Origin: a virus
Lineage: Duplodnaviria; Heunggongvirae; Uroviricota; Caudoviricetes
Strand: one strand, 5' to 3'
Length of the DNA: 12,890 nucleotides
Virus record (IMG/VR): IMGVR_UViG_2703718777_000025
Location: 1 to 12,890 of that record
Shown here piece after piece: positions 1 through 12,890 of this stretch (position 1 is its first letter; the number at the start of each line of letters is the position of its first letter). A program made the translations under genes and the position numbers. The notes under the pieces are model-generated. The model was not told the origin of the DNA. It made no database searches and was given only the letters and a program-made list of their open reading frames with translations.

Positions 1-342
1 ATGATGAAAAAAAGTATTCTGGCGTTTCTGTTACTCACCAGTTCTGCAGCGGCGCTGGCTGCACCGCAGGTGATTACCGTCAGTCGTTTTGAAGTGGGTA
101 AAGACAAATGGGCGTTTAATCGCGAAGAGGTGATGCTGACTTGCCGACCGGGTAATGCTTTGTATGTTATTAATCCGAGTACCCTCGTGCAGTATCCTTT
201 AAACGATATCGCACAAAAGGAAGTTGCCAGTGGGAAGACCAATGCCCAACCCATTTCGGTGATTCAGATTGATGATCCTAACAATCCCGGCGAAAAAATG
301 AGTCTGGCACCGTTTATAGAACGAGCTGAAAAACTCTGTTAA
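1..342 (+). CDS. yebY: Small secreted protein with N-terminal signal peptide, YebY-like (host chromosomal gene)
   Basis: 113-aa ORF starting [22 protein letters not shown] (hydrophobic core plus AxA-type cleavage site), followed by a terminator. The YebY name is recalled from memory, not searched. Confidence 0.7.
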
Positions 343-376
343 TTACCTAAAATAGCCTTTTGATTTCCAATAAAAA

Positions 377-413
377 AACCGCCTCAGTTCTTTCACCAGA
401 ACGGGCGGTTTTT
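377..413 (+). terminator. Rho-independent terminator after the yebY-like gene
   Basis: A-run, then stem CCGCC(379-383)/GGCGG(404-408) with inner stem GTTCT/AGAAC, then T-run 409-413. Confidence 0.7.
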
Positions 414-500
414 AACATTTCAGCTGATGACCACCACGCTTTTTATTGACCATTTTGCACGCAAACTGGAAAACCTGGCGTCGTCATCTATTCTTAAAGG

Positions 501-603
501 GCAAGGCAACTAAGCCTGCATTAATGCCAACTTTTAGCGCACGGCTCTCTCCCAAGAGCCATTTCCCTGGACCGAATACAGGAATCGTATTCGGTCTTTT
601 TTT
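501..603 (+). ncRNA. sdsR: sdsR (RyeB) sigma-S-dependent small RNA
   Basis: Starts GCAAGGCAACTAAGCCTGCATTAATGCC, matching my recollection of SdsR. Ends with an 8-bp-stem hairpin CCGAATAC/GTATTCGG (572-594) and a T-run to 603. Possible -10 CTATTCT at 488-494. RyeA/SraC would be antisense across this. Confidence 0.7.
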
Positions 604-734
604 AATTGTATTTAAAATCAATTAGTTGCAAACGTCTCCCCGAAATTCCCCGAAATTTACTCGAATTTCTGTATTCCGGTCTTTTTTGGTTATATCACAA
701 CCAAAATACATTTAACAATCCATTTACGTAAAAA
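604..734. other. Candidate attL junction region
   Basis: Lies between the sdsR terminator and the int stop codon. Contains an 11-bp tandem direct repeat (T)CCCCGAAATT x2 at 637-658 and a degenerate second copy of the sdsR 3' end, GTATTCCGGTCTTTTTT at 671-687 versus GTATTCGGTCTTTTTTT at 587-603. The exact core cannot be set without attR. Confidence 0.4.
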
Positions 735-1811
735 TCAGAGCAGTAAGTACGTTTTTTCTCTCTCATCAAGATACAGTTTTGTTGTCTTCTCCGATGTGTG
801 ACCAAGTAGGCGCTGGGCAAATTCTTCTCCACATGTTTCTTTGTACAATCGTCCAGCCAGACTTCTGATCTCGTGAAAAGTTGGTGGGTTTTCACTGAAC
901 TGAATACCTGTTAATTTTCTGGCTGCGACAAATTTTTTTGTCAGGCCATCCGGGTGAATGCTGCCGTCAGGGCTGTTTTTTCTAATCCCGGCACTGATTA
1001 GATAATCTCCCCGGCTTACCAGGCGGCACCGTTCAACTACTGTACCAAGCCGTAGGCCAGCGACAGGAAGGCTGAGTGACAAGGGGATAGCAATCATCAT
1101 TCCTGTCTTAATTTGCCTGATGTGGAGACGATCATCATAAATATCACTGAACCGCATATTCGTTATGTCTTCGCGACGTTGTCCTGTTACAAGGGCTAAA
1201 TCCATAGCTAATGGGAACCATGCCGGAAGTTGATCTGCTGCCTCCCTGATGCAGTTGTATGTCTTTAGTTTCAGTCGTTCTCTTGTAACTACTATTTTCG
1301 GTGCTCTTGTTGGTGTTACTGGATTTTGAGATATACGTCCTTCAACAATGGCCTCGCGGAACATATCAGATAACACAGAACGCATTGATCCTGCCATCGT
1401 GTTTTTCCCTCCTTCAATCCACAAATCAAGAAACTCGGCAATATGGCGAGTGGTTATTTCTGTCAGTAAAATCTCTCCCAATTTTTCTTTTATTGTCTCC
1501 AGTTGATTTACCCGAATTTTATAAGTATTTCTGGACACTTTTCTCCTTATAAGAATCGTTTTGTAACGTTCAATCCAGTCTGCCATAGTAAATGAGTCGA
1601 ACCCTTTAAGTTTTTCAATTAAGGCAGCAGTAGAGTAGTTTTTGTATATATAATGATTTGCTTCAATTGCCTGCGCGATTGCATCTCTTCTTGAAATTTT
1701 ACCTAGTGTAAATTCTTCTTTCGTCAGAGGGTTGCGCCAGTAATATGCTTTGTCCCTCCTTCGATATGTTAAGTTTTTAGGCAAATTGGGATCGTATTTT
1801 TTCCGCTGCAT
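735..1811 (-). CDS. int: Tyrosine site-specific integrase, lambda Int family
   Basis: 358 aa. The N-terminus aligns with lambda Int (NLPKNL...YYWRNPLTKEEF versus lambda DLPPNL...YYCYRDPRTGKEF) and the C-terminus has the PTFHEIRSLAGRLY and LLGH motifs. ATG confirmed at 1809-1811. Confidence 0.95.
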   Translation of the reverse strand: MQRKKYDPNLPKNLTYRRRDKAYYWRNPLTKEEFTLGKISRRDAIAQAIEANHYIYKNYSTAALIEKLKGFDSFTMADWIERYKTILIRRKVSRNTYKIRVNQLETIKEKLGEILLTEITTRHIAEFLDLWIEGGKNTMAGSMRSVLSDMFREAIVEGRISQNPVTPTRAPKIVVTRERLKLKTYNCIREAADQLPAWFPLAMDLALVTGQRREDITNMRFSDIYDDRLHIRQIKTGMMIAIPLSLSLPVAGLRLGTVVERCRLVSRGDYLISAGIRKNSPDGSIHPDGLTKKFVAARKLTGIQFSENPPTFHEIRSLAGRLYKETCGEEFAQRLLGHTSEKTTKLYLDEREKTYLLL

Positions 1812-2058
1812 GTTTTAACTTCTCCAGTAACGGACTGTCTCTCCCTTGTCGCCCATTAGGCTGATGGTGTGTTATATCGGTATCAACCTTATTTGGGTTG
1901 ATATAGAAAGCTTCCGGAACCACCCTGTAACTCCTCCCGTGTAGTTCAGGTGCAGGATAAATGTTTCCATTCCTTGCCCATCGTCTCAGCGTTGATATTG
2001 ATGGTGGGTTATCCGGATATCTGAGTTTTCCCCACGTTTTGAGTGTCACAAGATTCAT
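1777..2058 (-). CDS. xis: Excisionase (Xis-like)
   Basis: Directly upstream of int and overlapping it by 35 nt. The MNLVTLKTW...TLRRWARNGNIYP region resembles lambda Xis. Start placed at the second ATG (2058), which has AAGAGG 7 nt upstream; the ATG at 2064 is the alternative. Confidence 0.8.
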   Translation of the reverse strand: MNLVTLKTWGKLRYPDNPPSISTLRRWARNGNIYPAPELHGRSYRVVPEAFYINPNKVDTDITHHQPNGRQGRDSPLLEKLKHAAEKIRSQFA

Positions 2059-2080
2059 TGCCATACCTCTTACGATATGA

Positions 2081-2109
2081 CCGCCAGTAAATATACAGAA
2101 TACTGGCGG
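2081..2109. promoter_or_regulatory. Perfect 9-bp inverted repeat just upstream of xis
   Basis: CCGCCAGTA(2081-2089), 11-nt loop, TACTGGCGG(2101-2109), lying between the ydaC-like stop and the xis ribosome binding site. Confidence 0.3.
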
Positions 2110-2164
2110 GTGTGGTTGATTTTTAATAATCAGCTATGAAGTTCTAATTTGTATATAATGCAAC

Positions 2165-2353
2165 TCACGAGGACAGAAGTTTCTCGCAATTAAAATTTAT
2201 CAGCTTTACTTTCTGCTCTCTGGACACGCCTGCTTCTTTTTTCCCTGAGAGCATTTTTTCGCATTCTGATTTCGTTAATTTAGATTTTGAATATCTTGTC
2301 CAGTTAGTAGGAGTGCCACCTTCTTTTTCAATAGTGGCAGTTATTTTATACAT
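2165..2353 (-). CDS. Small hypothetical protein, YdaC-like, translationally coupled to lar
   Basis: 62-aa reading (MYKITATIEKEGG...) starting at ATG 2351-2353 with GGAGGTG upstream. This ATG lies inside the last codons of lar (GGA GGT GTT CAT GTA TAA). The longer 86-aa track ORF has no ribosome binding site. Confidence 0.6.
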   Translation of the reverse strand: MYKITATIEKEGGTPTNWTRYSKSKLTKSECEKMLSGKKEAGVSREQKVKLINFNCEKLLSS

Positions 2354-2540
2354 GAACACCTCCATTATTATTTCCAGTAGTTCGTTTATTCCATCTTTCG
2401 AGTGCTTCTTTTTCACTTCCACCATAGCCAGTTCGGGATTCGCATCCGTTGCATTTTGCCCGGTAATATCCTGAAATTGCTTTCACTGTAACAGATGGAC
2501 AACCACAAAACGGACATGGTTTAACATCGTCATATCTCAT
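2346..2540 (-). CDS. ralR: Restriction alleviation protein Lar/RalR (zinc-binding CxxC...CxxC)
   Basis: MRYDDVKPCPFCGCPSVTVKAISGYYRAKCNGCESRTGYGGSEKEALERWNKR, 64 aa from ATG 2538-2540, matching the Rac RalR length. Upstream in-frame ATGs at 2552 and 2579 are alternatives; none has a strong Shine-Dalgarno. Confidence 0.8.
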   Translation of the reverse strand: MRYDDVKPCPFCGCPSVTVKAISGYYRAKCNGCESRTGYGGSEKEALERWNKRTTGNNNGGVHV

Positions 2541-2596
2541 AATTTTTGTCATAAAAACTGTCTCGCGTTGGCGGTGCATTACACCGCCAGGCTGAA

Positions 2597-3406
2597 TTAT
2601 TCTTCTGAATTATCGATCACACTGTATTCCCCGGTTAATACAGAGGAGTCTGCCGGATCGATTGTCAGTGGTTCCTTTTCATCCATTGATACTGCACGCT
2701 GGATTTCAATTGAGACAGGCAGGTATTTAAACAGGCGACGAATAGCCGTTTTTTTTGCCATTTCTTCCCAGTGAGTTACCCATGGCCCGTTATTACCAGC
2801 CTTACTCTGGCTGCGCACCAGCTCAATCTGTTTGCGCGTCATAACTTCAAACTGAGTACCTCCGTCTTTCAGTCTTGCGACAGCATAGACGTGGGTAACC
2901 GGGGCATCTTCGTTTTCTCCTGGGCGGTGTATTAACTTTTCATCAAGGCCAAATTCGAAATTAAATTCGTCACCTTCACGGACAACACGGGCTGACAGGC
3001 TGGCGATTTGACCTGAACGGCGAGCCAGATCAATCATGCCGCGATAGCCAATGATTAGCTGAACGTTTTTTTTACCGCTCTTTTCGTTTTTATTACCAAA
3101 AGGCAGTAAATATGCATGACCGAGGGCGCTACCTGGCTCAAGCCCGAGCTGTGAACACTGTACGATTGCACTGACAAAACTCATAGTGTCACAGTTTCCT
3201 AACGCCGGAACTTTACGAATTTCTGTGGTGGCGATACGGATCATACGTTCAGCCGTCATATGGCGTGGAAGAGCTGCTGCCAGTTGCTCTTTCATTGATG
3301 GCTGGTTAATAAAACTAATCACGTCGTTATTTTTAATTGCTGCTGGTGCACGGTTTCCCTGAGTTTTTTGCAGATCGGCTTTTGCGATTGGTGGTTGCTT
3401 AGTCAT
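2597..3406 (-). CDS. recT: RecT single-strand annealing recombinase
   Basis: 269 aa from [23 protein letters not shown], essentially the Rac RecT sequence as I recall it. AAGGA ribosome binding site 8 nt upstream. Start overlaps the recE stop at 3399-3406. Confidence 0.95.
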
Positions 3407-6080
3407 TTGCATATTCCTTAGCCCAGCGGGGCAGTGATAACGTCTTAATAGCTGGCCATTCATTGGTATTGAGGCAGTCAGCCAGGGTTCGCAGATTGCG
3501 GTGATATTCCAGCTGACCTGCCAGTTTTGCTTCTTCGCCCATCATGAAAATTTCAACCGGATAACGTCCGCATTCAATAGTTGTGCTGGCAACCAGAAAA
3601 ACGAAAGTTGGCTGCACTCCAAACTGTGCTTCATAACCGTCACTGTAGAATGCATCCTGAACGTGATAGCGGTAGTCGTAATAAGCGGTTTTGAATCGTT
3701 GAATATCCGCCGTAGTTTTCACGTCCATGATCCAGTGAAATTCAGGGATAATTTTGTCCGGACGGCACCGACACAAAATTCCTGTTTCAGGATCTTCCCA
3801 GTAAATTGATGATTCAGCGTGTCCGGCGCTTTCAACAAGCCATTGCCCCAGCGGCAAAGCCATAACGCTTTGATACATGAGTTCAATTTTCAGACCTTCT
3901 TCCGCAGTGATAACCGTTTTTCCTGTGCTTGCGCATTCCATCAGAAACGCTTTCTCTTCTTCTTTTCCGGCGTTTGTACGGCGGTTAAATTCAGGTGCTA
4001 CGATAAAGCGGTTACTGAATTCTTCCGGTTCAAGTACCCGGCAGTGGAAAGCGGTTCCTAAATCGAGCGTTTTTGTCTTTGTGTTGTCCACGGGGGCATT
4101 TTTACGCCACAAATACAGTGCCGGAGTATCAGCAATGTCATCGAGCTGAGACTTACTGACACCGGGACCTACGTGGTAATTCTCATTCGAAATTCCGTAA
4201 TAAATACCTGGCTCTATGTCTTCTACGATTACGGGATCTGCGACTTCGCCAGTTTCATCACTGCAATCGCGATGCGGATCGCTGCCATCGTTCTCCTTGT
4301 GCGGATGTTCAGCACCTTCCATTTCCTCCAGACCTTTTTCCTGATATTCATTCTGATTTTCTTCATTAAAGGTTTTCTGATACGTTGCGTCGCCCATCAC
4401 CGCGCCGCAGTCAGGACAGTTGCCGCCGCCAGCCTGACCGCAGGCGATGCAAACTTTCTCCGTTTCCTGTTGTTGCACTACTGGCTCAGGCTGTTCCGTT
4501 TCTGGCTCGTTTTGTTGCGTATTTGGGTCGTTCTGTTCCGCTTTCTGGTCGTTATGTTCCGTTTCTGGCTGATTCTGGTACACAGAGTCGCGGGTCTGGA
4601 TCCCCTTAACCCATTTCGGATCATTCGGGTCGCTAATCCCTTCAACAAATTCTCCGCGAGAGGCAGCCAGTAATTTGTCTGCATCGACAGGATTTTTGGG
4701 CGGAATGTTTTTCCGGGCTTCATGGAGTTCTGCCCGCAGTTTCTGATATTTCGCATCAACAGAATTTACCTGTGACTGAGCATCCAGCGACTGCGTGTCC
4801 TGATGATGTTCAGTTGCATCCGGTTCCACTGTTTCAGCCGTTGCCTGTTCATCTGCCATTGCGCAAGATGGTTGCAGTTTTTCTTCATCATCCTGTTTTT
4901 CTTCTTCTTCTGTTACACGCTGCGGCATCGGGGCAGAGGAACGACCGCAGGCAATATCCACGATTTCCGGATCAGGGTTGGCATGATCAGTTTCAGTCAG
5001 TACTTTGTTCAGATATTCAGTGACGTGTGCGGGGGTAACCTCGATCCCAATTGGTGCTTCTTTTACGGACGCAACCACGATGGCGCGGGAATAATCCAGC
5101 CCGCCAGGCATGGTGATGAATTTGTCGCGGAAAACAGAAAAGGGCGGTTTATTTTCAGCGATAATTTCCTCGACACGTTTAGCGTGTGCCGGATGAAGGT
5201 TATAAATGTCCACGTCCATTGAACGAGCCAGTACGCCAGTGGCTACGTCGCGCGCCAGTGACGTCAGATCGTGAACGAAACCTTCGCCGCGATCGGTGAG
5301 GTTCCCGCCGCCAGCATTAGCGCCGGAAGCCGTGCGCGTGATGCGTGAAACACGATTTCCTTTCATCCACTCTTTTGTCAGCAGACCACGATCGGTGTAG
5401 TCTGCGTCCAGGTATGCTTCGAAAAAAGCAGTCATCAGCCCCAGGCTTGAATTGCCTGGATTAGGGAAAACTCTGTCAGTATCACGCACCAGTTTGTGGA
5501 GATCGCGAATTTCCAGCGGGTCGAGCAGGCTGGTTTTGTGGGAAACAGCCAGGGCAGTAACAGCTGGTAGTTCTTCAGCTCGTGCAATGTGTAATGCCTG
5601 GAGTTCGTCGCGTGAAACGTGCGTCACCGGTTTTTCGCTGCCGTGTTGAGCAAGCCAGCGAATGGGCAGCTCCTGACCGGAAATCGGGAGTAGCATATTC
5701 TCCTCAATCTCCGTCATGTCTTCGCCATTAACATTGGTATTGTCAGTGCTGGCTGGTTTGTCCTGCGCAGAGGATGAGGGCGCGATAAATACCATTGTGA
5801 TGCCATCTTCCCCGCCTTTTTCGTAACGGTTGCAGAATTCCGTATCAAATACGCCTTCTGGCGGGAGGTCATCAACAACGGGCAAATTGACGCGAACAGG
5901 TTTTTTGAAGTCATCTTCATCGTAGCCAGCATCATCAATCGCAACAGCACCACGGGAGATGGCAATGGATAATTTTTTCGCTTCAGCCCAGTAAAAACCG
6001 CCTTTAATACCGAGACGTTTTCTGACTTTGTCATTTTTTGCTTCGTAATACAGTGGGTAAACTTGTTTATCGGTGCTCAT
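3399..6080 (-). CDS. recE: RecE exonuclease VIII (5'-3' dsDNA exonuclease)
   Basis: 893 aa. The C-terminal two-thirds match my recollection of Rac RecE ([40 protein letters not shown]...[10 protein letters not shown]). Has an internal CxxC...CxxC motif ([16 protein letters not shown]). The first ~100 aa look different from the K-12 protein. Confidence 0.95.
4492..4575. repeat. Four imperfect 21-bp tandem repeats inside recE
   Basis: Units TGTTCCGTTTCTGGCTCGTTT / TGTTGCGTATTTGGGTCGTTC / TGTTCCGCTTTCTGGTCGTTA / TGTTCCGTTTCTGGCTGATTC. They encode heptad-like [28 protein letters not shown] in the RecE frame. Confidence 0.8.
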
Positions 6081-6151
6081 TGTTTTTTAACCTCAACTCA
6101 GATTAAAATTCGTTTTGTTCAGTGAATGATCTTGCCGGATACACACTGTTC

Positions 6152-6176
6152 ATAGCCTGCGCCATACGCAGGCTAT
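6152..6176 (+). terminator. Strong hairpin in the racC-recE intergenic region
   Basis: ATAGCCTGCG(6152-6161), loop CCATA, CGCAGGCTAT(6167-6176), followed on the plus strand by TTCTTTC. It reads as a terminator only for plus-strand (antisense) transcripts; on the minus strand no U-tract follows. Confidence 0.35.
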
Positions 6177-6181
6177 TTCTT

Positions 6182-6457
6182 TCAGATTTCACCTTTTAAT
6201 TTCATTGCAATTAGAGTTGCCAGAAATTCGGCTTTTTTTTCTGCGGGCAGATTCTTTCCGATATGCACCAGGCACATTTTTTTGACACCTTCATCAAGTG
6301 TTTTTACGTTGCCTGATGGACCATCGATATCAACCACAGTGAATGGGGTTTCTTTATTTTCTGTTTTAATTACGTAGCCAATGCGCTTTCCTTCCAGATT
6401 CACCTCGTGAACAATGTCATCGGTAGTTACAACAGTGGCTTCATAATTGGTAATCAT
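6182..6457 (-). CDS. racC: RacC
   Basis: 91 aa from MITNYEATVVTTDDIVHEVNLEGKRIGYVIKTENK, matching my recollection of Rac RacC. GGAG ribosome binding site upstream of ATG 6455-6457. Confidence 0.9.
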   Translation of the reverse strand: MITNYEATVVTTDDIVHEVNLEGKRIGYVIKTENKETPFTVVDIDGPSGNVKTLDEGVKKMCLVHIGKNLPAEKKAEFLATLIAMKLKGEI

Positions 6458-6531
6458 GTTTTTCTCCTTAATTAAGGTTGAGCGAATACCTGCCATTTCT
6501 GGCATAAATTCAGTTTCGAATAGTCAATTAA

Positions 6532-6702
6532 TTAAAGTTCATGTGCCATCTGGTCTTTTTCGGCACAAGATTCACTGCAATATTTTCTCGGTTCGTCTTT
6601 TGATAAAATCCCGTGCATGAAGTGAAGCATTCTTTCAATAGCTTTGCTTTCTTCAACGTCTTTTTTGCAAAGGTGGTAAGCACATTTTATTTTCTTAGTC
6701 AT
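6532..6702 (-). CDS. ydaE: YdaE-like small cysteine-rich (zinc-binding) protein
   Basis: Not in the supplied ORF track. My own translation of the minus strand gives 56 aa [56 protein letters not shown]. Its start codon overlaps the kilR stop codon. Confidence 0.85.
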   Translation of the reverse strand: MTKKIKCAYHLCKKDVEESKAIERMLHFMHGILSKDEPRKYCSESCAEKDQMAHEL

Positions 6703-6923
6703 CACCATGACTCCGCCTTTACAGGTAAACCATCACGACCGAGGAAGACTTTAATCATGCGGTCAGTAATGCATGTTTTTGTGGTCAGGTTACGAATATA
6801 TAGTTTTCGCTTTTTAATATTGTTTGCCGAGGCAATATATGTCCGGCCTTCATGAAGAACATAATCGCCAGGAGTCACACACTGACGTGGTATTTCATCA
6901 GTTCCGAAGTGATGTGCAATCAT
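6702..6923 (-). CDS. kilR: KilR cell-division (FtsZ) inhibitor
   Basis: 73 aa from [32 protein letters not shown], matching Rac KilR. GGAG ribosome binding site 6 nt upstream of ATG 6921-6923; the longer track ORF starts inside that site. Confidence 0.9.
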
Positions 6924-7096
6924 AATTATCTCCATTTTTACAAATGAACTTTGTTGATGCGGTGCCTGGTGCCTCCAGGTGACTGCAACCAGTTAACAAT
7001 TACAGTCGGCTTTCCCACCCAAACCAATAAGGACTAACATGACTTTTAACTGTGCCACGTGCGCTTAGCCGCATTCACCGCATCACAAAATTCACT

Positions 7097-7145
7097 TAAA
7101 AAAGGGCGGACATCAGCCGAACTTCAAGAAAAAACTGATGCCGCC
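7097..7145 (-). terminator. Candidate intrinsic terminator for leftward (minus-strand) transcription, upstream of kilR
   Basis: Stem GGCGGACATCAG(7105-7116)/CTGATGCCGCC(7135-7145), 11 bp with a one-base bulge and an 18-nt loop. On the minus strand it is followed at once by U6 (reverse complement of A-run 7098-7103). Confidence 0.35.
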
Positions 7146-7324
7146 AGGACTACACACAGCAATGTCGTTATTTACAACCGGAGGCGCACTCCCACCATTT
7201 AAATTTAACAGACAAGACCGACTCTTTATGGATATCGGAAATGCGCCTTCGTGTTGTGCCCGGTTTTATTTCACCACCTCCGGGCTTCGGTGGTTTTCGT
7301 TATTCCCCAACAGCGAAAATTAGG

Positions 7325-7675
7325 TTAATCTGAATATCCCCCAACAGATGGAAGGATTTTTCTATGCTCGAAAATCAGACCTTGAAGGTTGCCTGCCCTG
7401 ATTGCGGCAGTGAGATGCTCAAGCGGCCCGATGATTTTGACTTTGACACTAATTTCGTTGGCGTTAGTTGTGCCGAATGTGGTCGAGAAATCACTAAGGA
7501 CGATGTTATTAAGCAAGGAAAAAATGTAGTTCAGAAACAAGTCAATGACATGCTCCGGAACACCCTCAAAGGCAGCGGGTGGAAGTTTAAATAACCCATG
7601 TATCGCACTAAAGTGTTCCGTTACTTCTGTAGCGTCTATGGTAAGTTTGATAGGCGCTATTTTCACTCCCGTCAT
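7325..7675 (-). CDS. Hypothetical 116-aa protein, first ORF downstream of a strong leftward promoter
   Basis: ATG 7673-7675 with GAGGTG 6 nt upstream; about 70-nt leader from the promoter at 7752-7780. Fully overlaps the zinc-ribbon ORF on the other strand, so one of the two may be spurious. Confidence 0.45.
   Translation of the reverse strand: MTGVKIAPIKLTIDATEVTEHFSAIHGLFKLPPAAFEGVPEHVIDLFLNYIFSLLNNIVLSDFSTTFGTTNANEISVKVKIIGPLEHLTAAIRAGNLQGLIFEHRKILPSVGGYSD
7364..7594 (+). CDS. Small zinc-ribbon protein (CPDCG...CAECG), function unknown
   Basis: 76 aa, ATG 7364 with GGAAGGA 7 nt upstream. Two CxxCG motifs about 23 residues apart are typical of a zinc ribbon. Lies entirely inside the antisense ORF 7325-7675. 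Confidence 0.5.
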   Translation: MLENQTLKVACPDCGSEMLKRPDDFDFDTNFVGVSCAECGREITKDDVIKQGKNVVQKQVNDMLRNTLKGSGWKFK

Positions 7676-7751
7676 ACATCACCTCAAATCTTTTCCCTTA
7701 ACGCCGGGTGGCGGAACTAAAACCTACAGCGCCGTGCTGTTCTCGATAGAA

Positions 7752-7780
7752 ATATTAGTGACGCGTATATTTTAAGTCAA
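7752..7780 (-). promoter_or_regulatory. Near-consensus sigma-70 promoter reading leftward (candidate pL analogue)
   Basis: On the minus strand TTGACT (plus coordinates 7780-7775), 17-nt spacer, TAATAT (7757-7752). It sits just past the racR terminator and points toward the 116-aa ORF and the kilR-recET block. Confidence 0.5.
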
Positions 7781-7876
7781 CAGCAAGGCGTATTATATTT
7801 TTGATTTTGTAACTATGTAAATGTTTTTTCAAGGGAAAAATATTAGTTATACAGCTGATTTGCAGAAGTTATGGCA

Positions 7877-7910
7877 CAAAAAAAACCGACTAAGACGTCG
7901 GTTTTTTTTT
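7877..7910. terminator. Bidirectional rho-independent terminator downstream of racR
   Basis: A8 run, stem CCGAC/GTCGG, T9 run (AAAAAAAACCGACTAAGACGTCGGTTTTTTTTT), 27 nt past the racR stop. Confidence 0.75.
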
Positions 7911-7936
7911 GTTGTGGGTGGGGTAGTGAGCGGTGG

Positions 7937-8398
7937 CTACTGGTTACGTTTCTTTAGTGCCAGCATGTTCTCGAAGGCTTCCTCGTAGAGCTTGTTTAGT
8001 CCACGTAGCTGGTTAAGGAGTTTGGCTTTTTCTGACGCAGGTAGAATCTCGAAGAGGTTAAGTAACTCTGCCTGTTCTTCATTGACCAGCCTCCATCCTT
8101 TGCCTGAAAAGCTATCATCATAAGTATCTGATGATCTTACATAATTCATTAAGTCTTTAAGGTCTTCTCGAATGTCCTCTGGTTTTACCTTTAACAGAGC
8201 CGCAAATTTTAGCGCAGCGTCGGTATTTACCGGTATCTTGCCGTTCAGATACTGGCTAACGGTGCCTTGAGATTCGAATCCCAACAACTCAGCCGCCAAC
8301 TCTTGAGTCAGCTTCAGCTCTTTTTTTCTTGCATTCCATGCGGCTTTTAAATTCTTGCTCGCTTCTGGAGTTGCAATCACTTCGCGTGTTTTTTTCAT
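7937..8398 (-). CDS. racR: Prophage repressor, XRE/CI-type helix-turn-helix, RacR-like
   Basis: 153 aa with helix-turn-helix LTQELAAELLGFESQGTVSQYLNG. Divergent from the cro-like gene. No S24 peptidase-like C-terminal domain. ATG 8396-8398 has no Shine-Dalgarno and a -10-like TAAACT 6 nt upstream, suggesting a leaderless mRNA. Confidence 0.8.
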   Translation of the reverse strand: MKKTREVIATPEASKNLKAAWNARKKELKLTQELAAELLGFESQGTVSQYLNGKIPVNTDAALKFAALLKVKPEDIREDLKDLMNYVRSSDTYDDSFSGKGWRLVNEEQAELLNLFEILPASEKAKLLNQLRGLNKLYEEAFENMLALKKRNQ

Positions 8399-8404
8399 AC
8401 ATAG

Positions 8405-8475
8405 AGTTTATTTGTTTTACCAATATTATCAAAGATAGTCTGACTATTGATCTTTAAAATTAGTAGGGCTAATAT
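8405..8475. promoter_or_regulatory. Divergent promoter and operator region between racR and ydaS
   Basis: Plus-strand promoter TTGATC(8447-8452), 17 nt, TAATAT(8470-8475). Minus-strand promoter TTGATA (plus 8433-8428), 17 nt, TAAACT (plus 8410-8405). A 13-bp palindrome ATAGTCtGACTAT (8435-8447) lies between the two -35 boxes; a second inverted repeat ATTAG-N5-CTAAT is at 8458-8472. Confidence 0.5.
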
Positions 8476-8505
8476 TTGCTCGAGGCATAACGTAGAAGGT
8501 TGGCT

Positions 8506-8781
8506 ATGAACTTAAGAGACTATTTAAAAGAGAAACATATCACCCAGCTACAGTTTGGGAAGCTAACGGGTTTATCTCAGGTGCATGTAAGTCGAGTGCT
8601 GGGGGGCTATGAAAGATTCAGCCCTGAAAAAGCATTACGTGTTGCTGAAGTAACGAATTTCGAGGTTACACCTCATGAACTCCGGCCTGATATCTACCCG
8701 AATCCAACCGACGGTTTACCTGTTGGATGTAAGGCTAACACACAAAATACACAGGAGTTGATTCATGAAAATCAGGCATGA
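8506..8781 (+). CDS. ydaS: Cro-like helix-turn-helix protein, YdaS family
   Basis: Helix-turn-helix LTGLSQVHVSRVLGG. In the cro position and overlapping the start of ydaT. The track ORF begins at a TTG (8500); the first ATG is 8506 with GAAGG 6 nt upstream. Confidence 0.8.
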   Translation: MNLRDYLKEKHITQLQFGKLTGLSQVHVSRVLGGYERFSPEKALRVAEVTNFEVTPHELRPDIYPNPTDGLPVGCKANTQNTQELIHENQA

Positions 8782-9187
8782 GCACATCGAATCAGTGCTG
8801 TTAGCCCTGGCAGCTGAAAAAGGGCAGGCATGGGTAGCCAGTGCAATTACTGAAGAATATCTGCGCCAGGGAGGCGGCGAATTGCCCCTGGTACCAGGCA
8901 AGGACTGGAATAATCAGCAGAACATCTATCACCGTTGGTTAAAAGGTGAAACGAAAGCGCAAAGGGAAAAAATTCAGAAACTGATCCCTGCGGTTCTGGC
9001 AATTCTTCCGCGCGAGCTGCGTCACCGACTCTGCATCTTCGATACCCTGGAACGCCGTGCATTACTGGCGGCGCAGGAAGCGTTGAGTACGGCAATTGAT
9101 GCGCATGATGATGCAGTCCAGGCCGTTTACCGGAAAGCACATTTCAGCGGTGGTGGGTCGCCCGGCGATTCTGTCGTAGTGCATTGA
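8765..9187 (+). CDS. ydaT: YdaT (CII-like regulator of Rac-type prophages)
   Basis: 140 aa from MKIRHEHIESVLLALAAEKGQAWVASAITEEYLRQGGGELPLVPGKDWNNQQNIYHRWLKGE, near-identical to my recollection of Rac YdaT. AGGAG ribosome binding site upstream. Confidence 0.9.
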   Translation: MKIRHEHIESVLLALAAEKGQAWVASAITEEYLRQGGGELPLVPGKDWNNQQNIYHRWLKGETKAQREKIQKLIPAVLAILPRELRHRLCIFDTLERRALLAAQEALSTAIDAHDDAVQAVYRKAHFSGGGSPGDSVVVH

Positions 9188-9232
9188 TTGAAATTAATCG
9201 TGCCGGATTGTTTTGTTCGGTATCAGTTAAAT

Positions 9233-9251
9233 GTAACGCTGCGAGCGTTAC
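9233..9251. repeat. Palindrome GTAACGC-N5-GCGTTAC, copy 1, overlapping the ydaU ribosome binding site region
   Basis: GTAACGCTGCGAGCGTTAC, perfect 7-bp arms, 14 nt upstream of the ydaU ATG. Confidence 0.6.
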
Positions 9252-9264
9252 AAGGTGAAAACAA

Positions 9265-10053
9265 ATGGCTTCAAACTGGATAAAGCTCGAGGTTATTACG
9301 CCGGATAAGCCGGAAATATTCAGGCTTGCTGAGATTCTGAATATTGATCCAGATGCCGCATTAGGGAAGGTTATTCGCTTCTGGGCATGGGCGGATCAAC
9401 AAATGATAGACGGTAATGCAGATTGTAACGCTCGCGGCGTTACAAAAAGTGCAATAGATCGCATCACTTTTATGGCTGGTTTTGCTGATGCGTTAATTCA
9501 GGTTGGATGGCTGGTCGAAAATGACGGTGGGCTTTCTCTACCTAACTTTGAACGTCATAACGGGAAAAGCTCTAAAAAACGGGCGGTTACAAACGAGCGA
9601 GTTACAAAAATACGCGAACTGAAACGAAAAGGTAACGCTGGCAGCGTTACACAAACGGATCAAAAAGCGTTACCAGAGGAAGAGGAAGAGGAAGATATAA
9701 ATACTGATCTCCCCCTAAATCCCCCTCGCCAAAAACGAGCGTCTAAAAAATTCGAGCCGGAGGCTATCGAGCTGCCTGACTGGTTGCCGGAAACACTCTG
9801 GCATGAGTGGGTTCAGTTCAGGCAGGCATTGCGAAAACCGATTCGAACGGAGCAGGGCGCTAACGGGGCGATACGGGAACTGGAAAAATTCCGTCAGCAG
9901 GGTTTTACACCTGAGCAGGTGATTCGACACAGCATCGCCAATGAATACCAGGGCTTGTTCGTACCGAAAGGTGTTCGGCCTGAGACGTTGCTCCGACAGG
10001 TTAACACCGTCTCGTTGCCGGACAGTGCGATCCCGCCAGGCTTCAGGGGGTAA
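9265..10053 (+). CDS. ydaU: YdaU-like replication protein (O-like; DUF1376-type N-terminus recalled)
   Basis: 262 aa in the position of lambda O, directly upstream of a DnaC-like gene. Has an acidic linker PEEEEEEDIN. AAGGTGA ribosome binding site upstream. Confidence 0.8.
   Translation: MASNWIKLEVITPDKPEIFRLAEILNIDPDAALGKVIRFWAWADQQMIDGNADCNARGVTKSAIDRITFMAGFADALIQVGWLVENDGGLSLPNFERHNGKSSKKRAVTNERVTKIRELKRKGNAGSVTQTDQKALPEEEEEEDINTDLPLNPPRQKRASKKFEPEAIELPDWLPETLWHEWVQFRQALRKPIRTEQGANGAIRELEKFRQQGFTPEQVIRHSIANEYQGLFVPKGVRPETLLRQVNTVSLPDSAIPPGFRG
9425..9443. repeat. Palindrome GTAACGC-N5-GCGTTAC, copy 2, inside ydaU
   Basis: GTAACGCTCGCGGCGTTAC, perfect 7-bp arms; encodes CNARGVT. Confidence 0.6.
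9632..9650. repeat. Palindrome GTAACGC-N5-GCGTTAC, copy 3, inside ydaU
   Basis: GTAACGCTGGCAGCGTTAC, perfect 7-bp arms; encodes GNAGSVT. Related half-sites: GTTACAAA x2 at 9586-9608 and GCGTTAC at 9666-9672. Confidence 0.6.
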
Positions 10054-10059
10054 CAGACC

Positions 10060-10800
10060 ATGAAAAATATTGCGACAGGCGGCGTTCTGGAGCGTATCCG
10101 CAGACTGACCCCACCACATGTAACCGCCCCATTCAGAACGGTTGCGGAGTGGCGTGAGTGGCAACTTACTGAAGGCCAGAAACGTTGCGAGGAGATCAAC
10201 CGTCTGAATCGTCAGTTGCGGGTGGAAAAAATTCTGAATCGCTCTGGCATCCAGCCGTTGCACCGTAAATGCTCGTTTGCGAATTACCAGGTGCAGAACG
10301 ACGGCCAGCGATACGCGTTAAGCCAGGCGAAATCCATCGCTGATGAACTGATGACCGGGTATACAAATTTTGCGTTCAGCGGAAAACCTGGTACCGGGAA
10401 GAATCACTTAGCGGCAGCTATCGGGAATCGCCTGCTGAAAGACGGTCAGACAGTGATTGTGGTTACCGTGGCTGATGTTATGAGCGCCCTGCACGCCAGC
10501 TATGACGACGGGCAGTCAGGCGAAAAATTTTTGCGTGAACTGTGCGAAGTGGACCTCCTGGTTCTTGACGAAATTGGCATCCAGCGTGAGACGAAAAACG
10601 AGCAGGTGGTACTGCACCAGATTGTTGACCGCCGGACGGCATCACTGCGCAGTGTCGGGATGCTGACAAACCTGAATCATGCCGCAATGAGCACGCTTCT
10701 TGGTGAGAGGATTATGGACCGGATGACCATGAACGGTGGTCGTTGGGTGAATTTTAACTGGGAGAGCTGGCGGTCAAACGTTGGACGTCAGGGTATGTGA
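10060..10800 (+). CDS. ydaV: DnaC/IstB-like AAA+ helicase loader
   Basis: 246 aa with Walker A FSGKPGTGKNHLAAAIG and Walker B DLLVLDEIG. Confidence 0.9.
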   Translation: MKNIATGGVLERIRRLTPPHVTAPFRTVAEWREWQLTEGQKRCEEINRLNRQLRVEKILNRSGIQPLHRKCSFANYQVQNDGQRYALSQAKSIADELMTGYTNFAFSGKPGTGKNHLAAAIGNRLLKDGQTVIVVTVADVMSALHASYDDGQSGEKFLRELCEVDLLVLDEIGIQRETKNEQVVLHQIVDRRTASLRSVGMLTNLNHAAMSTLLGERIMDRMTMNGGRWVNFNWESWRSNVGRQGM

Positions 10801-10825
10801 GAATTTTTAACGAGGTGAATTTTCG

Positions 10826-11596
10826 ATGGAAACCGTATTACATGCACTGAAAGCGATGGGAAAAGCCAATTCTGTTGAACTGGCGGCACGAATTGATATC
10901 AGCCGTGAAGAAGTTCTCAACGAACTGTGGGAGCTCAAAAAAAATGGCGTTGTTGATAAAACGGGTCACACCTGGTTTCTGGCTGTCGAAGGTGAATCCC
11001 GGGTAACCGAAGAGCGGCCAGTAAAATCTGAAACACAGGATATGCTGACCGAAGAGGTCGCTCCAAAAGTTAGCGCTAACATGATGATTGAGTTTATCGC
11101 TCAGGAGGGGGCTAAAACCTGTGAAGAAATAGCGGGTAAGTTCGGTGTCAGTACTCGCAAGGTTGCTTCCACGCTGGCGGTGGTAACCGCAACGGGGCGG
11201 CTGGCACGCGTTAATCAGAACGGTGGATTTCGTTACTGCATGCCGGGCGATAATTTACCAGCAGAGCCGAAAGCCGCGCTGGTAACGGAAAGTGATGGTA
11301 AGGCCTTTCCTCAGCCAGCAGGTGCTGCGTTACCAGTCCGGGAAGCCGCAACACAGGAAGAAATTAAAACAGAAACTGTGGCGGACATTGTGCAGCCGTT
11401 GCCATCGTTTACCGAAACGCAAGCAGATGAGCTGATTTTTCCGTCCCTTCGCAGGGCAAACCTGGCGCTGCGCAGGGCGAAAAGTGATGTTCAGAAGTGG
11501 GAGCGAGTCTGCGCCGCGCTGCGGGAGCTGAACAAGCACCGGGATATTGTTCGGCAGATTGTCGATTCATCCGGTCGTATTGTGTCGGAAAAGTGA
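10826..11596 (+). CDS. Hypothetical prophage protein with two winged-helix-like segments (possibly YdaW/DUF1627-like)
   Basis: 256 aa, GAGGTGA ribosome binding site. Two segments of similar pattern (SVELAARIDISREEVLNELWELKKNGVV and CEEIAGKFGVSTRKVASTLAVVTATGRLARV). Family assignment from memory is uncertain. Confidence 0.75.
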   Translation: METVLHALKAMGKANSVELAARIDISREEVLNELWELKKNGVVDKTGHTWFLAVEGESRVTEERPVKSETQDMLTEEVAPKVSANMMIEFIAQEGAKTCEEIAGKFGVSTRKVASTLAVVTATGRLARVNQNGGFRYCMPGDNLPAEPKAALVTESDGKAFPQPAGAALPVREAATQEEIKTETVADIVQPLPSFTETQADELIFPSLRRANLALRRAKSDVQKWERVCAALRELNKHRDIVRQIVDSSGRIVSEK

Positions 11597-11611
11597 TTGC
11601 CGGAGGCGCTT

Positions 11612-12004
11612 ATGGCAAAAGTATTTACACCAGAAGAGCGGGAAGAAGTGAAGGCGCGCATTGTGGAATTCGTGCGCCTGAGCGGACGAGAAACTTTTCG
11701 ACAACTGGCAGATAAAACGGGTGTCAGTAAGACCGCTATTCGTCGTTTATCTGGTGCGCTTGCGGCCAGTGGTGATGTCTGGCTCTCTGGTTGCGGGGTA
11801 TTTCTATCAGAGCAGGCGTATCGCGTATGGCGTAAGACACCGGAGAAGGCTGCTGACCCGACACTGATTCGAAAGTTACCTGACGGAGAAATACGTCGTT
11901 ACAACAGACGGCAGAACATAATTTGTCGTGAGTGCCGCCAGAGCGAAGTTATGCAGCGTGTGCTGGCGTTCTATCGGGGTAATTTTCAGGAGGTGATGGA
12001 GTGA
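11612..12004 (+). CDS. Hypothetical protein with helix-turn-helix-like segment
   Basis: 130 aa from ATG 11612 (GGAGG 5 nt upstream); the track ORF starts at an upstream TTG. Helix-turn-helix-like FRQLADKTGVSKTAIRRL; C-terminal CRECRQ. Confidence 0.7.
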   Translation: MAKVFTPEEREEVKARIVEFVRLSGRETFRQLADKTGVSKTAIRRLSGALAASGDVWLSGCGVFLSEQAYRVWRKTPEKAADPTLIRKLPDGEIRRYNRRQNIICRECRQSEVMQRVLAFYRGNFQEVME

Positions 12005-12300
12005 GGGTGAGGGTTTATATCGCCGGTCCGATGACCGGGTATAAAAATTTCAACCGTGAGGCGTTCCACAAGGCGGAAGAGGAACTGAAACGGGAAGGGC
12101 ATACAGTCTTAAACCCGGCAGTACTTCCGGACGGGCTGACACAGCCGCACTACATGGATATTTGCATGTCAATGATACGCTGCGTGGATGCGATTTACAT
12201 GCTGAAAGGCTGGCAGCGGTCGGCAGGCGCTAAGGCAGAACTGGCACTGGCGGAGAAGCTGGGGCATACAGTTATTTTCCAGGAGGCAAACAGTGAGTAA
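12001..12300 (+). CDS. DUF4406-like protein (nucleoside 2-deoxyribosyltransferase-like fold)
   Basis: N-terminal VYIAGPMTG motif and DAIYMLKGWQRSAGAKAE segment characteristic of this family. GTG start at 12001 or 12007, overlapping the previous stop (ATGGAGTGAGGGTG). Confidence 0.7.
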   Translation: MRVRVYIAGPMTGYKNFNREAFHKAEEELKREGHTVLNPAVLPDGLTQPHYMDICMSMIRCVDAIYMLKGWQRSAGAKAELALAEKLGHTVIFQEANSE

Positions 12301-12757
12301 CCAATGGCGACCAGATATTTGCCCAATAACCGGACGTGCATTTTTCATGTGGATTGAGCATCCGAAATTGGGAAATGTACCGACGTATGGTGGCCCATTA
12401 GACAGTTACACCATTCCAACAAAGGACAGCGATGGTGAGTTTTCGTGTGAGCGTTACGATCATGATTTCGGTGGCTGGGTAGAAAGCGAATGTCTAGGGT
12501 TATATCTGATTGATGATGAAGAACAATGCAGAGTCTACGAACTCGAGGAGCGCGTTAAAGAGCTGGAAGCGCGGGAAGTTCATTTACCGACTCGCTACGG
12601 CCTTCGATATGGACATCCGATAAATGCTGATGAGCGCCACGTCATGATACCTAAAGAAAATGGCTGCTGGATTTATCTGGCTGATTTAGAGCACGTACTA
12701 CGTGTTGCTGGTATTCGCATCAAAGGAGAGGAGCATGGAAATCAAACCAGAAGATGA
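12293..12757 (+). CDS. Hypothetical prophage protein
   Basis: 154 aa, GTG start with AGGAGG 6 nt upstream, overlapping the previous stop. No family recognised. Confidence 0.65.
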   Translation: MSNQWRPDICPITGRAFFMWIEHPKLGNVPTYGGPLDSYTIPTKDSDGEFSCERYDHDFGGWVESECLGLYLIDDEEQCRVYELEERVKELEAREVHLPTRYGLRYGHPINADERHVMIPKENGCWIYLADLEHVLRVAGIRIKGEEHGNQTRR

Positions 12758-12890
12758 GTTAAGTAATATTGTTTTATTTCCGGTAAAAGAGGATGACCCA
12801 CGTAATCAGGTTAATTTTCTTTATGAGCCATCGGAAAGACCATATTGTCATCACGCCTCTGTCCGGGTTGACGAAAAAGAGCGTCAGGTC
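12735..12890 (+). CDS. Hypothetical protein, 5' partial (runs off window end)
   Basis: ATG 12735 with AAAGGAGAGGAG upstream. Open for 52 codons to the window edge (MEIKPEDELSNIVLFPVKEDDPRNQ...). Overlaps the end of the preceding gene. Confidence 0.5.
   Translation, partial: MEIKPEDELSNIVLFPVKEDDPRNQVNFLYEPSERPYCHHASVRVDEKERQV

Follow-up and report, generated by a model that had tools for sequence, protein, structure and literature searches.

In phage lambda, the -10 hexamer of PRM is located 6 nt upstream of the cI start codon (TAGATT-TAACGT-ATG), and E34 and D38 of CI are positive-control residues. An S24 autocleavage domain is not universal among lambdoid repressors. It is missing from PaaR2, the repressor of the CP-933P (Sp12) switch in E. 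coli O157:H7. The leaderless start of PaaR2 was mapped by 5' RACE and N-terminal sequencing, the protein at low level activates its own promoter, and it was reported to be unresponsive to mitomycin C (PMC8630535). In the same system, several operators lie over both promoters, a PL/OL region is present, and YdaS and YdaT are Cro and CII analogues (PMC8630535). PaaR2 forms octamers. In the Rac prophage of E. coli K-12, the leaderless promoter PracR3 is the strongest of the racR promoters and is activated by RacR in vitro, and three inverted-repeat operators are present (PMC9638921). Leaderless repressors with several operators have thus already been published for lambda cI, PaaR2, and K-12 racR.

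We analyzed a window of 12,890 nt (the whole stretch of DNA under study, positions 1 to 12,890 of virus record IMGVR_UViG_2703718777_000025). It corresponds to a Rac-like prophage with intR, xisR, recET, and kilR, adjoining ttcA. The initial annotation had described this locus as the divergent-promoter switch of a lambdoid prophage, and the analysis supports this description. The repressor gene and a cro-like gene are divergent and separated by 107 bp (100 bp in lambda), as in lambdoid CI/Cro switches, and two predicted sigma-70-type promoters stand back to back over positions 8399 to 8505 (Table 1). We consider it likely that positions 7688 to 9187 are a Rac-like immunity region at ttcA, in which 8399 to 8505 form a lambda-like OR with three operators, serving a leaderless repressor without an S24 domain. 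The same immunity type was found in 180 E. coli genomes, and approximately 3% of the complete E. coli genomes carry the cassette; carriers include O157:H7 strain 2571, NCTC86, and VR50. The locus adds one more, unremarkable case of a familiar switch design. It leaves the understanding of phage switches unchanged, the design having been described for lambda, CP-933P, and K-12 Rac, and it yields a concrete predicted operator and promoter map for a previously uncharacterised immunity type.

Table 1. Predicted features of the immunity region (window coordinates)
Feature	Position	Strand	Details
PL-like promoter	within 7752..7793	-	TTGACT 7780-7775, 17 nt, TAATAT 7757-7752
Candidate OL1	7768-7754	-	ATACG-CGTCA-CTAAT
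Candidate OL2 (weak)	7793-7779	-	ATACG-CCTTG-CTGTT
Bidirectional intrinsic terminator 3' of repressor gene	7878..7910	.	hairpin 7886-7901, flanking A/T runs
Repressor gene, 153 aa	7937..8398	-	ORF and translation
-10 hexamer of repressor promoter (PRM-like)	8405..8410	-	TAAACT, 6 nt 5' of ATG
O-left (OR3-like) candidate dyad	8410..8424	.	ATTTG-TTTTA-CCAAT, centre 8417, -19 from ATG
-35 hexamer of repressor promoter	8427..8432	-	TTGATA, spacer 16 nt
O-centre (OR2-like) candidate dyad	8434..8448	.	GATAG-TCTGA-CTATT, centre 8441, -43 from ATG
Rightward (PR-like) promoter	8447..8475	+	TTGATC 8447-8452, 17 nt, TAATAT 8470-8475; predicted start near 8482
O-right (OR1-like) candidate perfect dyad	8459..8473	.	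ATTAG-TAGGG-CTAAT, centre 8466, -68 from ATG
Shine-Dalgarno	8495-8499	+	GAAGG, anti-SD duplex -5.8 kcal/mol
Cro-like YdaS-family gene, 91 aa	8506-8781	+	ATG at 8506; Pfam YdaS_toxin and HTH_3
YdaT box	8758-8775		TTGATTCATGAAAATCAG, across ydaT start codon
ydaT (CII analogue)	8765..9187	+	94% identity to K-12 YdaT

The 153-aa repressor gene occupies the place that racR has in Rac, and it had been named racR. By homology this name is wrong: a BLASTP comparison with K-12 RacR (b1356) gave E = 26, and a second BLASTP run returned no match. Repressor residues 12 to 78 matched the N-terminal structures of lambda CI (phmmer against PDB, E 2.6e-4 to 7e-3). In contrast to this lambda-type N-terminal domain, the C-terminal domain was 38% identical to that of DicA over 42 aa (BLASTP, E 8e-6), and PHROG 5736 matched residues 103 to 152. 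Comparison by hhalign gave 95% and E 5e-8 for DicA, and 90% and E 2e-6 for PaaR2, with an HTH and a C-terminal ELLxxFxxxPxxE motif common to the repressor and PaaR2. Conservation of the protein begins at M1, in keeping with the leaderless start described below. An AlphaFold2 monomer model showed a confident N-terminal domain, while the C-terminal domain was modeled as two long helices with low confidence (pLDDT 40 to 52). At the level of sequence, the protein is not RacR but a fusion of a lambda-CI-type HTH with a C-terminal domain of the DicA/PaaR2 type. It has the composition of the short-repressor type, namely, an N-terminal HTH and an approximately 50-aa helical C-terminal domain with ELLxxFxxxPxxE, without a peptidase.

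The resemblance to the two short repressors is partial. DicA of the Qin prophage is likewise short and without S24, but it has another subtype of HTH at its N-terminus, and dicA and dicC are separated by 83 bp with different repeats. PaaR2 is homologous, yet the pairwise identity is only approximately 19%, and the N-terminal domain found here is much closer to those of lambda-type and Stx-phage CI. The toxin-antitoxin operon headed by PaaR2 (paaA2-parE2) has no counterpart here, and the PaaR2 operators are GTTTAGTAA-type repeats arranged as four inverted repeats. For annotation, this means that the gene at the racR position in many Rac-like prophages is not RacR. Results on the operators, essentiality, and cross-talk of K-12 RacR should not be transferred to strains with this cassette. 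The repressor of phage Rac-SA53 is 100% identical to the protein analyzed here; in the Rac-SA53 record the gene is named dicA.

The proposal that the 153-aa repressor lacks an S24 domain held: the ORF length was confirmed, Pfam reported HTH_3 only, and PF00717 (S24) had no Pfam match in the repressor. A check for Ala-Gly/Ser/Lys cleavage features, which had been suggested, revealed neither an S24 domain nor an AG or CG dipeptide in the protein. Loss of the domain by truncation had been raised as an alternative. However, the 153-aa form represents a conserved family of full-length proteins, and no S24 remnant was present in any frame of the window. Because domain, Ala-Gly site, and remnant are all missing, RecA-stimulated self-cleavage of this repressor is unlikely, as the initial annotation had supposed. 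In this predicted respect the switch differs from that of lambda, where the C-terminal domain is an S24 peptidase. With a DicA/PaaR2-type helical domain in its place, the switch should ignore RecA-stimulated autocleavage, and candidate triggers would be dilution or zygotic induction, an antirepressor, or stochastic bistability. No exact LexA box was found, and matches with one mismatch occurred at chance level.

The repressor promoter was analyzed with respect to the start codon (8398 to 8396, minus strand). The previously noted TAAACT, 6 nt before the ATG, was confirmed at 8410 to 8405. For the upstream TTGATA, the position (8432 to 8427) was correct, while the spacer had been given as 17 nt and is 16 nt. 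The lack of a Shine-Dalgarno sequence was also borne out, with an anti-SD duplex of +1.6 kcal/mol vs -5.8 kcal/mol for the rightward gene. In 13 of the 14 related lineages, the distance from a TAnnnT motif to the repressor ATG was exactly 6 nt; in the remaining one it was 7 nt. TAnnnT has a background rate of 4.9% per position, and the nucleotides separating the -10 from the ATG are themselves unconserved among lineages. In PaaR2 (GATAAT-TACCAC-ATG), the -10 is likewise 6 nt before the ATG. The likeness to leaderless lambda cI transcribed from PRM, which had been pointed out for this locus, is thus strengthened by shared geometry, conservation, and the PaaR2 precedent. Transcription is predicted to begin at the A of the repressor ATG (8398), which would leave no leader; the repressor mRNA is very probably leaderless.

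Alternatively, the repressor could be made mostly from leadered transcripts, initiated upstream in the spacer or at a YdaT-activated PRE-like promoter in ydaS/ydaT, with the ATG-proximal -10 being incidental or minor. Three promoters have been mapped for K-12 racR, of which two are leadered (PMC9638921), a PRE-type promoter exists in lambda, CP-933P, and K-12 Rac, and a YdaT box is present here (Table 1). However, the distance between -10 and ATG is fixed in 13 of 14 lineages, which speaks in favor of a selected start at the ATG. Longer transcripts would have no Shine-Dalgarno sequence, and in K-12 it is the leaderless promoter that is strongest (PMC9638921). A PRE route would, moreover, supplement rather than replace leaderless maintenance expression. 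A mainly leadered mode of expression is therefore improbable, and a leaderless start remains the preferred reading.

The -35 hexamer TTGATA of the leaderless promoter is weak, variable, and poorly conserved among relatives, as would be expected of an activator-dependent, PRM-type promoter. Repressor residues E33 and E37 correspond to E34 and D38 of lambda CI in the alignment of the two proteins and are always acidic in the repressor alignment. Together with the PaaR2 and RacR precedents, the weak -35 and these acidic residues make self-activation by the repressor plausible.

The rightward promoter, proposed as TTGATC-17-TAATAT, was found as described. Its hexamers match 8 of 12 consensus positions, which is below the scan threshold, yet both are conserved in most related loci. 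The 13-bp palindrome ATAGTCtGACTAT was confirmed at 8435 to 8447. It had been said to abut the rightward -35 box and to lie next to that of the repressor; the shared location holds, but its overlap with the rightward -35 is 1 nt, and 2 nt separate it from the leftward -35. The spacer has a G+C content of 32%, and a perfect 6+1+6 palindrome occurred in 4.4% of its dinucleotide shuffles (14% if loops of 0 to 3 nt were allowed). The palindrome alone is therefore weak evidence. Its inner bases 8440 and 8443 differ in relatives that are otherwise at least 97% identical, and thus only ATAG..CTAT is kept.

We searched without bias for the highest-scoring triple of dyads, in a format (5-N5-5, 15 bp, arm consensus ATTAG) that was picked after inspecting the sequence. 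The search returned the centres 8417, 8441, and 8466 with a score of 25/30, which was reached by 1 of 1,000 dinucleotide shuffles. As a positive control, the same search recovered the annotated OR3, OR2, and OR1 of lambda. The centres are 24 and 25 bp apart, and their distances from the ATG (-19, -43, and -68) resemble those of lambda OR3, OR2, and OR1 (-19, -42, and -66), although the lambda operators are 17 bp long. Similar triple positions were obtained in L005, L006, L007, L011, L017, L018, L021, and L026, whereas in the related loci L004, L022, L010, and L024 the best triple was in another register or elsewhere. O-left covers the -10 and the spacer of the repressor promoter, and its dyad peak is at the same offset in most lineages. 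O-centre contains the palindrome and overlaps the rightward -35 by 2 nt. Both have 4 of 5 arm pairs each, a level common in AT-rich DNA. O-right overlaps the rightward -10, is the top PWM match in the window, and is the best-conserved site: the form AT..[G/A/T]-N5-.TAAT is kept in 18 of 18 related loci with varying N5. Since its right arm coincides with the -10 hexamer, this conservation is partly due to the promoter.

Sequence variation also speaks for the three operators. Among variants sampled from the 180 E. coli genomes with the same immunity type, 7 of the 10 polymorphic spacer positions fell within the 15 central N5 positions (P = 9e-5). In O-centre, 2 of the 3 positions variable in close relatives are in the N5 (8440 and 8443) and one is in the right arm (8446); in O-right, all five N5 positions differ among prophages at least 97% identical. 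Operator arms were more alike within than between genomes (P = 0.003 and 0.016). A dyad profile at fixed offsets gave a sharp cross-lineage peak only at -19; the other two sites were smeared by register shifts of 1 to 3 bp, and a promoter-anchored comparison was therefore used. Two further searches were discarded: additional ATAGTCNGACTAT sites with up to 3 mismatches did not exceed chance in the window, and the degenerate pattern WTWG-N5-CWAW was too loose to inform across the whole window.

The initial annotation had inferred a single shared operator, simpler than the lambda arrangement, and did not include the dyad at 8459 to 8473. In such a minimal switch, repressor or Cro bound to the palindrome between the -35 boxes would control both promoters. 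Indeed, the spacer contains no other perfect 6+1+6 inverted repeat, and no further copy of the palindrome with up to 2 mismatches was detected elsewhere in the window. However, palindromes of this kind arise in 4.4% of shuffles, the inner bases vary among near-identical relatives, and the perfect dyad over the rightward -10 is better conserved. The triple layout is non-random and matches lambda, and several operators are also present in the PaaR2 and K-12 RacR systems and in the related Stx phage. We regard a sole operator as a poor explanation with little chance of being right. Instead, the palindrome is the middle one of three 15-bp candidate operators in an OR3/OR2/OR1-like layout that overlie both promoters.

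With three operators, a lambda-like mechanism can be proposed, in which lambda, PaaR2, and RacR serve as the models for cooperativity, self-activation, and the order of Cro preference. Repressor dimers would fill O-right and O-centre cooperatively, blocking the rightward -10 and -35 and silencing the genes of the Cro-like YdaS and the CII-like YdaT. Repressor at O-centre, beside the weak -35, would stimulate its own promoter, and at high concentration O-left would be filled and this promoter shut. The Cro-like protein would prefer these sites in the opposite order. No paper containing these operator sequences or the protein accession numbers was found in the literature.

Similar operators were found in an Stx phage (Lys12581Vzw, NC_049917). 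The N-terminal domain of its CI is 50% identical to that of the repressor, and the recognition helices are similar (QGxVSQ). In the OR of this phage, the same half-sites recur in a three-site layout (ATTAG.., AATAG-CTAGA-CTATT, and ATCAG-GTAAG-CTAAT; score 26/30), and AATAG-CTAGA-CTATT abuts TTGACA, the same place as O-centre here. In contrast, the Stx-phage CI has 239 aa and a LexA-type S24 domain, and its gene has a GGAGG Shine-Dalgarno sequence and 10 nt between -10 and ATG. A tentative reading, which we hold to be possible though doubtful, starts from an SOS-inducible phage with an S24-type CI, of the Stx-phage lineage: its DNA-binding domain and three-operator OR would have been combined with a grafted DicA/PaaR2-type C-terminal domain, which is unable to sense SOS, to give this immunity type. 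If so, operator geometry would have been kept while the SOS sensor was exchanged, and the new domain would answer another signal or an antirepressor. The variable OR1 centres would then reflect selected tuning of the switch threshold and not a mere lack of constraint. As a comparative case, the locus combines a lambda-type operator layout and a predicted leaderless promoter with a changed repressor C-terminal domain.

Compared with Rac of K-12, the prophage backbone and the position of the repressor gene are the same, the main racR promoter is leaderless there too, and the rightward -10 is also TAATAT. YdaT is nearly identical (Table 1), and in both prophages a YdaT box lies over the ydaT ATG; the K-12 box has been footprinted (PMC11879457). 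Unlike these parts, the repressors are unrelated, the YdaS proteins are 32% identical, and the K-12 operators are (T/A)TAGGC-n3-GCCTA(T/A) vs ATTAG-N5-CTAAT here. These differences point to a heteroimmune cassette replacement from 7688 to approximately 8790.

The start of the YdaS-like gene at 8506 agrees with the PGAP-annotated start in L001. As in lambda, a CII analogue is encoded downstream of cro, but an unrelated YdaT stands in place of CII and a YdaS-family HTH protein in place of Cro. The Pfam families are named YdaS_toxin (PF15943; 30.9 bits vs a cut-off of 30) and YdaT_toxin (PF06254; 43.3 vs 21), and two 2017 papers on K-12 RacR took the view that a toxin-antitoxin-like module is involved. 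Under that explanation, the region would be no lysis-lysogeny switch, and an essential repressor would hold off the toxins YdaS and YdaT. This function is disputed in the literature, and Jobling's critique likewise argues against it. Here, the surrounding genes are those of a complete lambdoid early region. YdaT is a DNA-binding CII analogue (PMC9986795, PMC11879457), and in CP-933P YdaS and YdaT are Cro and CII analogues (PMC8630535). We consider a toxin-antitoxin-like module very improbable and retain the lambdoid switch. No PRE-like promoter could be convincingly assigned by eye near the YdaT box.

On the left side, the terminator downstream of the repressor gene folds with -16.8 kcal/mol (z = -5.1), and its stem shows a compensatory change from CCGAC/GTCGG to CCGCC/GGCGG in L004 and L005. 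A candidate PL/OL is located 160 to 240 bp beyond the repressor gene, as in lambda, and inside the co-inherited immunity block, the left border of which is at approximately 7688. The register of OL1 and OL2 on PL equals that of O-right and O-centre on PR, and 13 of the 18 related loci have this arrangement. When matches in the window were ranked with a PWM derived from the OR sites, OL1 came only 12th, and OL2 is weak. The candidate PL/OL may permit looping. The conserved leader at 7680 to 7750 folds no better than shuffles (z = +1.4), and a search of positions 7000 to 9300 against Rfam returned nothing at the gathering threshold. A DicF-like RNA is located in the left operon.

The repressor gene was named racR in the initial annotation. 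This identity is ruled out by BLASTP comparison with K-12 RacR (E = 26); its sequence places the product outside the RacR family. HTH_3 is its sole Pfam domain. In a PDB search, residues 12-78 hit the lambda CI N-terminal domain (E = 3e-4); they also share ~50-60% identity with the corresponding domains of S24 repressors of 234-259 aa, Stx-phage CI among them. Residues 78-153 are kept in a family of 153-aa proteins from Escherichia, Enterobacter, Hafnia, Serratia, and Salmonella, and this part of the protein shows homology to the DicA (BLASTP E = 8e-6; hhalign 95%) and PaaR2 (hhalign 90%) C-terminal domains. Comparison places the repressor, by its N-terminal domain, with lambda-type and Stx-phage CI and, by its C-terminal domain, with the DicA/PaaR2-type short repressors. 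An AlphaFold2 model was confident for the N-terminal domain alone; the C-terminal domain was modeled, with low confidence, as two long helices. The lack of an S24 domain, noted initially, was borne out, with no Ala-Gly dipeptide in the repressor and no trace of S24 across all frames of the window; like the domain make-up, it can be read from sequence and comparison. Loss of S24 by truncation was considered and is not the case. Since the DicA/PaaR2-type C-terminal domain is conserved across the 153-aa family and no S24 remnant is present, a different C-terminal domain explains the short protein.

Predicted elements of the switch region (window positions)
Feature	Position	Strand	Details
Repressor ORF	7937-8398	-	153 aa; ATG at 8398
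Repressor promoter -35	8432-8427	-	TTGATA; then 16-nt spacer
Repressor promoter -10	8410-8405	-	TAAACT; then 6 nt, ATG at 8398
Rightward promoter PR	8447-8452, 8470-8475	+	TTGATC, 17 nt, TAATAT; GAAGG Shine-Dalgarno, then ATG 8506 (Cro-like gene)
Palindrome ATAGTCtGACTAT	8435-8447		6+1+6; highlighted initially
O-left	8410-8424		ATTTG-TTTTA-CCAAT; centre -19 from repressor ATG (lambda OR3, -19)
O-centre	8434-8448		GATAG-TCTGA-CTATT; centre -43 (lambda OR2, -42)
O-right	8459-8473		ATTAG-TAGGG-CTAAT; centre -68 (lambda OR1, -66)
Bidirectional terminator	7886-7901 (hairpin)		3' of repressor gene; z = -5.1
Leftward promoter PL	7780-7775, 7757-7752	-	TTGACT, 17 nt, TAATAT; beyond terminator
OL1	7768-7754		ATACG-CGTCA-CTAAT; register on PL exactly that of O-right on PR
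Candidate OL2	7793-7779		ATACG-CCTTG-CTGTT; register on PL that of O-centre on PR

The repressor promoter proposed initially holds in its hexamers and in the 6-nt gap to the ATG; its spacer, given as 17 nt, was counted as 16. The PR pair was not listed by the promoter scan because its hexamers match only 8/12 consensus positions. Leaderless translation was assessed in 14 lineages with repressors 43-99% identical to that of the window. In 13 lineages, TAnnnT is located exactly 6 nt 5' of the repressor ATG, with 7 nt in the remaining lineage, and the six intervening bases are not conserved. Given a TAnnnT background of 4.9% per position, the binomial P is ~1e-16 for these partly non-independent lineages. 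In the 20 nt 5' of the ATG, anti-SD pairing is absent for the repressor (+1.6 kcal/mol) versus -5.8 for the Cro-like gene. Lambda PRM (TAGATT, 6 nt, ATG) and paaR2 of prophage Sp12/CP-933P (GATAAT, 6 nt, ATG) have the same geometry. Leaderless translation of paaR2 was proved by 5' RACE, N-terminal sequencing, and mass spectrometry (PMC8630535), and the dominant promoter of the unrelated K-12 racR is also leaderless (PMC9638921). The conserved spacing, the missing anti-SD pairing, and these parallels make the predicted leaderless start well supported; it is a feature already established in the closest systems. In Stx phage Lys12581Vzw (L038; region 754-858), the S24-type cI is preceded by a GGAGG Shine-Dalgarno, its -10 lies 10 nt from the ATG, and its operators belong to the same family as those of the window. 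Therefore, leadered and leaderless versions occur within one N-terminal-domain/operator lineage.

The initial annotation also proposed a single shared operator, simpler than in lambda. This was not supported: the palindrome is the middle one of three predicted dyads, and its inner bases vary. By itself it proves little, because 4.4% of dinucleotide shuffles of the spacer (32% G+C) yield a perfect 6+1+6 palindrome. A script searching for three 15-bp dyads (5-bp arms, 5-bp centre N5) with centres 22-26 bp apart, a format picked post hoc from looking at the sequence, returned O-left/O-centre/O-right as the best triple (25/30), equalled in 1/1000 dinucleotide shuffles. Run on lambda, it placed the three centres where OR3, OR2, and OR1 are annotated. 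O-right, unmentioned initially, is the best PWM match in the window, and its right arm overlaps the PR -10 hexamer; its form AT..[G/A/T]-N5-.TAAT is kept in 18/18 related loci with a varying centre. O-left and O-centre are unremarkable dyads when taken singly. Comparable triples occur in eight further loci (L005, L006, L007, L011, L017, L018, L021, and L026), and the best triple is in a different register in four lineages. The S24-type CI of Stx phage L038 is related in its recognition helix, and this phage carries a triple of the same layout (ATTAG-CAACA-CAAAT, AATAG-CTAGA-CTATT, ATCAG-GTAAG-CTAAT; 26/30).

Among nine close variants of the immunity type, 7/10 polymorphic spacer positions fall within the 15 central N5 positions (P = 9e-5). 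Variable positions 8440 and 8443 break the "perfect" palindrome and leave ATAG..CTAT whole. Arms are more alike within than between genomes, both for O-right and O-left (P = 0.003) and for O-right and OL1 (P = 0.016). Among prophages at least 97% identical, all five central bases of O-right (8464-8468) differ and both arms are invariant; this centre is either the sole unconstrained stretch of the spacer or subject to selected tuning of operator strength.

In the left part of the cassette, PL and OL1 are likely and OL2 is tentative. The PL/OL arrangement was found in 13/18 related loci, with arms tracking each genome's own OR, as in L018 (OL1 ATACG-CAGAG-CTAAT, OR1 ATACG-CGGAG-CTAAT) and L004 (ATGAA..TTAAT). 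L004 and L005 carry a compensatory change in the terminator stem. Immediately 5' of predicted PL and overlapping candidate OL2, the strongest promoter-like match of the region (7792-7821, minus strand; TTTACA, 18 nt, TATAAT; 11/12 positions) may be either a coincidence or a second leftward promoter in tandem. Immediately 3' of the predicted PL start, a 45-bp block TTAACGCCGGGTGGCGGAACTAAAACCTACAGCGCCGTGCTGTT (7697-7741) is nearly invariant, even in L004 and L005, which have a different immunity type. It folds no better than shuffles (z = +1.4) and is a possible leader element of the nutL or put type. Further along the leftward operon, a full-length match to the DicF-like antisense RNA family (Rfam RF00039; 7104-7158, minus strand; E = 5e-6) scored 37.6 bits, below the gathering score of 48; such an RNA fits a DicA-like repressor.

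Sequence and comparison show the gene order, the two promoters, the leaderless geometry, and three dyads with a probable PL/OL copy; every feature of a lambdoid CI/Cro switch looked for at this level was found except the S24 domain, the second operator set as a candidate. By analogy, the region probably works like lambda OR. As in lambda, PaaR2, and RacR, the repressor would fill O-right and O-centre cooperatively and shut PR, stimulate its own weak-(-35) promoter from O-centre, and, at high level, fill O-left and repress itself; the Cro-like protein would prefer the sites in reverse order. Self-activation fits the poor conservation of the repressor-side -35 in relatives and residues E33 and E37, which align with the positive-control residues E34 and D38 of lambda CI and are acidic throughout the family. 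It also fits PaaR2 and RacR, each of which stimulates its own promoter when present at low dose (PMC9638921 for RacR). Induction by RecA-stimulated self-cleavage is unlikely, as initially supposed: the repressor lacks Ala-Gly and S24, and mitomycin C reportedly has no effect on PaaR2. The window contains no LexA box. The initial observation was largely correct: support was found for the leaderless start and for the lack of S24, but not for the single operator. Multi-operator, S24-less leaderless repressor genes are already published for CP-933P and K-12 Rac, and the region is therefore a further example of a known design, of modest interest.

The 1.4 kb surrounding the switch is identical in a prophage of E. 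coli O157:H7 strain 2571 (L001), whose ttcA site and genes intR, xisR, ralR, recT, recE, and kilR identify a Rac backbone. A phage Rac-SA53 gene named "dicA" encodes the same repressor (100% identity); identity with the K-12 proteins is 32% for the Cro-like protein (to YdaS) and 94% for YdaT downstream. Same-immunity relatives share a single homology block from ~7688 to 8790 or further, therefore a heteroimmune cassette inserted in the Rac backbone. With every such relative, homology begins at an abrupt mosaic junction (7688-7691), which marks the left edge of the exchangeable immunity cassette. The cassette spacer is present in 180/5426 complete E. coli genomes (identity at least 95% in all). 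Two overlapping ORFs on opposite strands, alternative candidates for the gene here, of 116 aa (7325-7675, minus strand; PHROG 29546) and 76 aa (7364-7594, plus strand; zinc ribbon, PHROG 4852), were also noted; the 7325-7675 segment is absent from the O157:H7 and Rac-SA53 relatives.

The Cro-like gene and ydaT share 17 nt (8765-8781) where the former ends, and a YdaT box, TTGATTCATGAAAATCAG (8758-8775), straddles the start codon of ydaT, where YdaT also footprints in K-12 (PMC11879457). The same study described two Rac sites only, none of them upstream of xis/int. A second box, TTGATTTTTAATAATCAG (2116-2133; 1 mismatch to TTGATT-N6-AATCAA), lies just 5' of the xis (1777-2064) and int (735-1811) genes, which run leftward, and also occurs in strain 2571 (position 2016); it may serve integrase expression as a PI-like site of CII type.
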